Of a stretch of DNA of 64,000 nucleotides, positions 44,889 to 45,176 are shown piece after piece. Below the pieces are notes generated by a model that made no database searches, had not been told where the DNA came from, and saw nothing but the letters and a program-made list of their open reading frames with translations. The stretch comes from an uncultured Clostridia bacterium (GTDB lineage: Bacteria; Bacillota; Clostridia; TANB77; CAG-508): NCBI GenBank assembly GCA_934182605.1, contig CAKPRQ010000002.1, positions 44,361-108,360 of the forward strand. The letters run 5' to 3'. The position numbers were made by a program, and so were the translations under genes. Numbering within the stretch: position 1 is the stretch's first letter; the number at the start of each line of letters is the position of its first letter.

Positions 44889-44960
44889 TACAAAATCCTT
44901 TCACTTTATTATATGTGATTCTAAAAAATTTAGAATATTTATATTAATAAATTAAATATA

Positions 44961-45063
44961 TCTTATAAAATACTAGTACTTATATATTAATATTTTGAAA
45001 TCAAAGACCAGAATTGTTACACCCTAGATATGTTTTTGATGAAAAATATTAATATATAAGTAT
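44961..45063. repeat. Nested-palindromic repeat, copy F (subfamily 3), inserted immediately next to copy G
   Basis: Arms AGTACTTATATATTAATATTTT / AAAATATTAATATATAAGTAT. Core GAAATCAAAGACCAGAATTGTTACACCCTAGATATGTTTTTGATG. It is flanked by a 19-bp direct duplication AATAAATTAAATATATCTT (44946-44964 and 45064-45082). Confidence 0.7.
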
Positions 45064-45176
45064 AATAAATTAAATATATCTTGATATATAGCTATTACAA
45101 ATCAAGCTCACAATTGCTACCATCTAGCTATGTTTTGATTATAACATATATATATATCAAGATAAACTTTATTACA
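45064..45176. repeat. Nested-palindromic repeat, copy G (variant arms ATCTTGATATATAGCTATT)
   Basis: Arms AATAAATTAAATATATCTTGATATATAGC / GCTATA...ATATATATATCAAGATAAACTTTATT. Core ACAAATCAAGCTCACAATTGCTACCATCTAGCTATGTTTTGATT. It ends 5 nt before the M23 peptidase stop. Confidence 0.65.

Follow-up and report, generated by a model that had tools for sequence, protein, structure and literature searches.

Correia elements and RUP are abundant intergenic palindromes of 100–160 bp, which lie near or in operons, are polymorphic between strains and can give hairpins in transcripts; both duplicate TA. REP/BIME sequences are short (20–40 bp), G+C-rich palindromes, often clustered, with a Y1 (RAYT) transposase gene. 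Insertion of one element into another is known from nested plant MITEs and from the REP-targeting IS1397; these events are transposase-mediated, with normal ends and normal duplication length. For a DDE transposase, the length of the duplication is fixed by the enzyme. Slipped-strand and template-switch events at palindromes and short direct repeats are known from E. coli genetics, and their products are precise loss of a hairpin between repeats and ectopic copying with duplication of the flank. Bacterial MITEs are usually shorter than 200 bp, fold into long stem-loops, and consist of terminal inverted repeats around a core with target-site duplications, without a transposase gene (Delihas, 2011, PMC3184786). 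The Correia elements of Neisseria and the RUP elements of Streptococcus pneumoniae are listed in the same work (PMC3184786).

The window, which is the whole 64-kb stretch of DNA analysed from an uncultured Clostridia bacterium, had a G+C content of about 27%. At least nine copies of one repeat family were found in it, about one per 7 kb. The family consists of palindromic non-autonomous transposons (MITEs) of about 150 bp located in intergenic spacers. Two adjacent blocks between a ctpA-like gene and an M23 peptidase gene, F and G, are decayed members from different subfamilies; a direct repeat flanks F, and strains with and without F were found.

The repeat family and its insertion signature

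Full-length copies of the family were 141–155 bp long and had no ORF. Both ends carried terminal inverted repeats of the form GT(T/A)AC(A/T)(A/G)TTCAG..., the end sequence reading GTTACAATTCAG. Inward from these repeats followed the outer arms, a perfect stem of 20–22 bp and a conserved core of about 40 nt (...CAAGACCCGGATTGTGTCACCCTAGCTATGTTTTGA...). The stems varied by subfamily with full compensation, and among 27 distinct copies changes on both sides were present at 9 of the 19 predicted stem pairs; this is no proof of RNA function, because a DNA palindrome would give the same pattern. The Rfam 15 covariance models gave no match across the window at the gathering score, and at relaxed thresholds only chance-level matches to microRNA models appeared.

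Full-length copies in the window were located at 6070–6218 (minus strand, 8-bp flanks matching at 7 of 8 positions), 9151–9300 (plus strand, 6 of 8), 43408–43547 (minus strand, 141 bp, ends GTAACAACTC.../...GTAGTTAC) and 60142–60281 (plus strand, flanks AAATTTCC and AAATTTCA, 7 of 8). Another copy occupied the spacer upstream of ftsE (49922–50069, plus strand), and one at 37563–37666 (plus strand) had most of its core deleted. The F-type stem AGTACTTATATATTAATATTTT was present in full-length elements with normal ends, namely one in the window (28462–28607, plus strand) and those of the related loci L131, L054, L104, L112 and L161. The window element had the same outer stem as F and the terminal repeats GTTACAGTTCACA.../...TGTGAATTGTAAC, and was 90% identical to F over the hairpin. 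An F-type "shell" without a hairpin (43631–43670, plus strand; ...TTATTATAAAACATAT followed by AAGTACT and ACTAAATTA) abutted the ctpA stop codon. A metagenome scan for the F stem returned 120 matches, mostly chance matches in unrelated A+T-rich DNA; family copies were present in only nine loci, none of which overlapped the window.

Several observations were made beside these copies. The element at 60142–60281 provided the final codons and the stop of the upstream methyltransferase-like ORF (60257–61108), whose product was 283 aa in the window and in L039, and 278 aa in L038, where a different element was present. In L175, an 85-bp minimal shell (8446–8530) had the family terminal repeats GTTACAATTCA...TGAATTGTAAC and neither the conserved core nor the long stem. 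A second palindromic family, with the core ...TTATGGAAAGAGTTCGTGTCAACGGAAGGGTGCCATAA... and outer inverted repeats ATCACTTGAAAATACTTG(G/A)ATTAAATTAAAAA, had no Rfam match; full copies were found in L019 (5255–5560) and L025 (3642–4000), and the window had the right half only (43560–43640). Finally, four to five tandem 42-nt units at 52932–53141 form a coding repeat in the long ORF 51939–54413.

Canonical insertion of the family produced an 8-bp target duplication, which was perfect at two copies and matched at 7 of 8 positions at four more. The perfect duplication CGGAACAG lay on both sides of the copy at 43408–43547, and L019 had the empty site with a single copy of it; the other perfect duplication, CTTATAAG, bounded L170 5850–5997. 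Several family sites were filled in some strains and empty in others. The 8-bp duplication indicates that intact members are moved in trans by a DDE-type transposase. Across the window and about 265 kb of related loci, no autonomous insertion sequence or transposase sharing the family ends was found; an IS66-family element (L029) and an IS4/IS5-type element (L177) were present there, but had ends that did not match.

The M23–ctpA spacer and its alleles

The spacer (44889–45180, 292 nt) separates the M23 peptidase gene (45181–46386, minus strand, with a PcsB-like coiled coil), which is upstream of it on the gene strand, from the ctpA-like gene (43668–44888, minus strand, encoding an S41 peptidase with a PDZ domain), which is downstream. 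A second M23 peptidase, FtsX and FtsE are encoded further upstream of the M23 peptidase gene. A 773-aa protein with weak TraG/TraD-type coupling-protein domains (40991–43312) adjoined ctpA in all strains, and other conjugation genes were absent nearby.

The 19-mer of the original prediction was found exactly at 44946–44964 and 45064–45082. It extends one base leftward, and the direct repeat is thus 20 bp, TAATAAATTAAATATATCTT, at 44945–44964 and 45063–45082 (both plus strand), with sharp boundaries, since the bases outside differ at either side. When up to two mismatches were allowed, two matches were observed against a mean of 0.16 in the shuffled window. The possibility, raised with the original prediction, that the repeat is a common genomic word is contradicted by its occurrence in the M23–ctpA spacer only, across the window and all fetched loci (about 265 kb of non-redundant related sequence). 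When 57 non-redundant copy contexts were compared, no second direct repeat of more than 12 bp was found in a flanking position.

The first copy of the repeat lies on the ctpA side of F and is the sole copy kept in the strains that have only G. Block F (44965–45062, plus strand, 98 bp) consists of a 10-nt tail (ATAAAATACT, 44965–44974) and an F-type hairpin (44975–45062) with a perfect 20-bp outer stem (AGTACTTATATATTAATATTTT / AAAATATTAATATATAAGTA), an inner stem and a decayed conserved core of idiosyncratic sequence (GAAATC...CCAGAATTGTTACACCCTAGA). The second copy of the repeat is contiguous with G, forms the proximal part of its left outer arm and is predicted to pair with the right arm at 45159–45174. 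Copy G (45076–45174, plus strand) has the hairpin stem ATATCTTGATATATAGCTATT / ...ATATATCAAGAT, a degenerate core CAAGCTCACAATTGCTACCATCTAGCTATGTTTTGA and the right outer arm AAACTTTATTA; its stem type, ATCTTGATATATAGCTATT, is unlike the F-type stem, and its terminal inverted repeats have decayed past recognition.

The family profile matched both blocks, as expected from the original prediction, in which they were two copies of one dispersed family of repeats. The match to F (44975–45063) covered profile positions 37–123 of 149 and that to G (45075–45168) positions 35–128; as only inner positions are covered, both lack terminal repeats. At 72% identity, F and G are not tandem duplicates of one another, and an origin of F by tandem duplication of G, from which it also differs in the stem, was rejected.

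As a single strand, 44925–45195 was predicted to fold into two adjacent long hairpins (−34.5 kcal/mol, z = −5.8). A promoter and terminator scan of the spacer found no terminator-like sites, and promoter-like hexamers were no commoner than in shuffled sequences. Where F meets the second repeat copy (45039–45066, plus strand), a perfect TATAAT arises at 45061–45066, preceded by ATGAAA 16 nt upstream; it faces away from ctpA and is no more than a match to the consensus.

Strain variants were gathered via 90% protein clusters. The closest CtpA proteins among species-representative genomes were only 46–47% identical and came from an "uncultured Clostridia bacterium" (Hadza gut MAGs). Among the strain variants, group A (the window, L019, L027, L028, L044 and L045) had F and G in a spacer of 292 nt. 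Groups B and B2 (L046, L047 and L049) also had F and G, in 288 nt, and their G part was unlike that of group A. Group C (L021–L024, four independent assemblies) had G only, in 170 nt. The alleles with both blocks were present in at least eight assemblies, against four with G only. Exactly 118 bp, made up of F and one copy of the 20-mer, distinguished the two kinds of allele. Where only G was present, the 20-mer ran on from the upstream spacer and was predicted to pair with the right arm of G, and the palindrome extended unbroken across the 20-mer and further out; G thus forms one coherent long palindrome, and F interrupts it.

These alleles bear on much of the original prediction. It had placed F inside the outer arm of G, and the 20-mer is indeed the proximal part of the left outer arm. 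It had called for a G-only allele in related strains, and L021–L024 provide one without exactly these 118 bp; the arrangement with both blocks is accordingly not common to all relatives.

In more distant relatives (82% CtpA identity), the same spacer held other elements: an oppositely oriented full copy in L038 and L039, and a member of the second repeat family in L025. The M23–ctpA spacer is thus a repeated landing place. Loci obtained via the DHH-family protein variant P0143 came from a relative with a different gene order and no family copies, and were uninformative.

Loci retrieved with the window's own CtpA were solely contigs of 1.4–1.5 kb that stopped inside F. The independent short-read contigs of L001, L002, L020 and L048 stopped inside F not more than 3 nt apart, three of them at the same base. 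The family thus breaks short-read metagenome assemblies at fixed points.

Origin and age of F

Rearrangement other than by a transposase is common in the family. Hairpins were deleted between microhomologies of 3–5 bp, leaving empty shells, at window 43631–43670 (compared with L021) and at L054 2766. In the chimeras L073 2920–3055 and L181 8384–8516, the left and right stems came from different subfamilies and were unable to pair, which points to crossovers inside the conserved core. Abutting or truncated neighbour copies were found in L131, L180 and L054. L021–L024, which have no F in the M23–ctpA spacer, carried a full F-type hairpin just past the ctpA stop codon (L021 5224–5319), and the strains with F had the hairpin-less shell there. 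The two hairpins were just 89% identical, so there was no recent move between the sites, and cut-and-paste of the ctpA-3' hairpin into the spacer was rejected.

F had neither feature of a canonical insertion. GTTAC-type ends were absent beside it, so that it is not bounded by terminal inverted repeats, and the flanking duplication was 20 bp instead of the family length of 8 bp, which was unique among the 57 contexts. The clpP–clpX spacer was considered as a second filled and empty pair of F type and was rejected, because the short allele keeps the first 8 nt of the stem; this allele is a deletion derivative, not a naive empty site, and gives no duplication length.

Gene trees rooted with L025 gave different orders of events. 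The ctpA tree placed the strains with F and G together and the G-only strains basal (AB versus CO, 18 informative sites against 8 and 2). The M23 tree placed the G-only strains with group A and group B basal (AC versus BO, 29–31 informative sites against 4–6). In the immediate flanks, the G-only strains were closest to L049, which has F and G; L021 and L049 differed at about four positions around the site. Judged from these sequences, the ctpA tree would fit insertion, and the M23 tree and immediate flanks would fit a later deletion between the 20-bp repeats. Because the trees of the two flanking genes conflict, the locus is a recombination mosaic, and one gain and one loss are equally parsimonious. 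The insertion is therefore not the datable event that the original prediction had made of it, the G-only allele being basal for one flanking gene and nested for the other.

F with both repeat copies (138 bp) was free of substitutions when group A was compared with groups B/B2. The spacer adjoining F differed by 3.6–8.9% between these groups: the adjoining 56 nt of spacer had two to four differences, and the adjoining 90 nt of G had seven to eight differences and a 4-bp indel. A single old accident is insufficient by itself to account for 138 unchanged bp amid such diverged flanks. L047 differed from the near-identical L046 solely by a 2-nt patch in F (CAGAATT to CCGGATT, at 45010/45012), which restores the family consensus and looks like a micro gene conversion.

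The F insertion is ordinary repeat-element turnover with an atypical insertion signature. The reading favoured here, to which about an even chance is given, is that F is a one-off copy-choice or repair insertion of an internal F-type fragment into an older G. G would have been in place first. An internal fragment of an F-type element (the hairpin and 10 nt) would then have been copied into the left outer arm of G, just outside the G stem, and 20 bp of this arm would have been copied a second time. Template switching or break repair could have used another F-type element as the template, with copying from mid-arm through the hairpin and resumption 20 nt upstream in the G arm. We infer such a replication or repair accident, and this order of events, in place of transposition, since transposon ends are missing from F and the duplication measures 20 bp, not 8 bp. 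F was 85–92% identical to every other recovered F-type copy; it is thus not a recent copy of any of them, and no donor element was found among the recovered copies. Similarity of the junctions to F-type arms was no greater than in shuffled controls, or marginally greater at most (p = 0.04–0.9), and the junctions thus did not demonstrate microhomology. F would be a single instance of templated insertion, so the mechanism is not generalisable.

The G-only allele may be the unfilled site or a precise secondary deletion, because 20-bp direct repeats around a strong hairpin are a substrate for slippage. If F with G is ancestral in the species, the G-only allele arose later, when the two 20-bp repeats slipped or recombined across the F hairpin; the polymorphism would then not show the pre-insertion state, and the original insertion would be earlier. 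This is a serious possibility, somewhat short of an even chance. Three diverged haplotype groups carry F with G, the G-only strains fall beside strains with both blocks in the M23 tree and in the immediate flanks, and hairpin losses between short repeats are documented at two other sites. It is opposed by the ctpA tree, in which G-only is basal, and by the undiverged F and repeats of group A and B/B2, which fit a young F better than an ancestral one. Transposition of F into G as a mobile MITE by the family transposase, with the 20-bp repeat as target-site duplication, is improbable. This MITE-into-MITE insertion was the view of the original prediction, and it draws on a perfect direct repeat with sharp boundaries that exactly brackets the extra block, and on members in or beside one another elsewhere (L054 6112, L180 6809/6952, L131 1203/1343). 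The missing terminal inverted repeats of F and the canonical duplication of 8 bp speak against it, and the constant duplication length expected at F-type insertions did not appear, because none of the 57 contexts had a second long duplication.

Three further explanations were weighed. A two-step origin, in which the G arm and hairpin were duplicated in tandem and the first hairpin was then replaced by an F-type one in a gene conversion that had its anchors in the conserved core and arms, is equally improbable. Core crossovers between subfamilies exist (the chimeras at L073 2920 and L181 8384) and L047 has the micro-conversion inside F, but two rare events would be required, no G-type remnant is present between the repeats, and the 10-nt tail of F and its length as a block (98 bp against 94 bp) are at odds with the G unit. 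Slightly less credible is that the inner hairpin (stem and core) moves independently of the MITE shell, with long repeats left on either side by a mechanism that is specific for a structure or a site. This reading is consistent with hairpins that have no shell (F and the clpP–clpX copy) and shells that have no hairpin (window 43631–43670 and L054 2766), with the clean 118-bp difference between alleles, with the reciprocal pattern at two sites 1.3 kb apart, and with F and repeats that are undiverged across diverged strain backgrounds, and is required by none of them; if true, it would be a new mechanism, and otherwise none is opened. Site-specific integration and excision, in which a recombinase would act on a 118-bp F unit, with the 20-mer as its attachment core, and on the identical 20-mer in the G arm, is the least likely of all. 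It would explain the precise presence and absence, the two perfect 20-mers and the identity of F and repeats in diverged backgrounds, and in the clpP–clpX copy, the one other F without a shell, AATAAATTAAA lies at a distance of 8 nt from the right end (shuffle p = 0.04). However, neither the ORF list nor a Pfam scan of the neighbouring genes showed a recombinase gene beside the site, recombination would involve a very small circle of 118 bp, and the 20-mer was found at no other locus. The clpP–clpX copy is itself an old, decayed one, and 8 nt of the stem are still present in its "empty" allele.

Comparison with known systems

This MITE family, hitherto undescribed, occurs at very high density in an uncultured lineage of human-gut Clostridia. 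Besides transposition, it has been reshaped by hairpin-driven deletion, chimera formation and, apparently, at least one templated insertion. Its strain-specific spacer alleles lie within a conserved cell-division and cell-wall gene cluster; they are potential strain markers and may influence ctpA expression.

By the features of REP/BIME with RAYT, the family falls outside that class: it is about 150 bp long and A+T-rich, with terminal repeats and duplications. It resembles the nested plant MITEs and IS1397 in having a repeat within a repeat and in clustering in the same spacers, but F has neither normal ends nor a normal duplication length. With slipped-strand and template-switch events the family shares the deletions at 3–5-bp microhomologies, which are seen here in sequence comparisons.

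Compared by features, the family is like Correia and RUP in its abundance, its intergenic palindromes near or in operons, its strain polymorphism and its hairpin potential; it differs in the duplication (8 bp versus TA), the absence of sequence similarity and the host phylum. By the definition of bacterial MITEs (PMC3184786), the family belongs with them. F itself departs from them, having no ends and a 20-bp duplication, and in the family the central core is the most conserved part and the long stems differ by subfamily. The family as a whole nevertheless matches bacterial MITEs on every structural point: a length of 141–155 bp, terminal inverted repeats, 8-bp duplications, no ORF, many copies, a long hairpin, and filled and empty sites.
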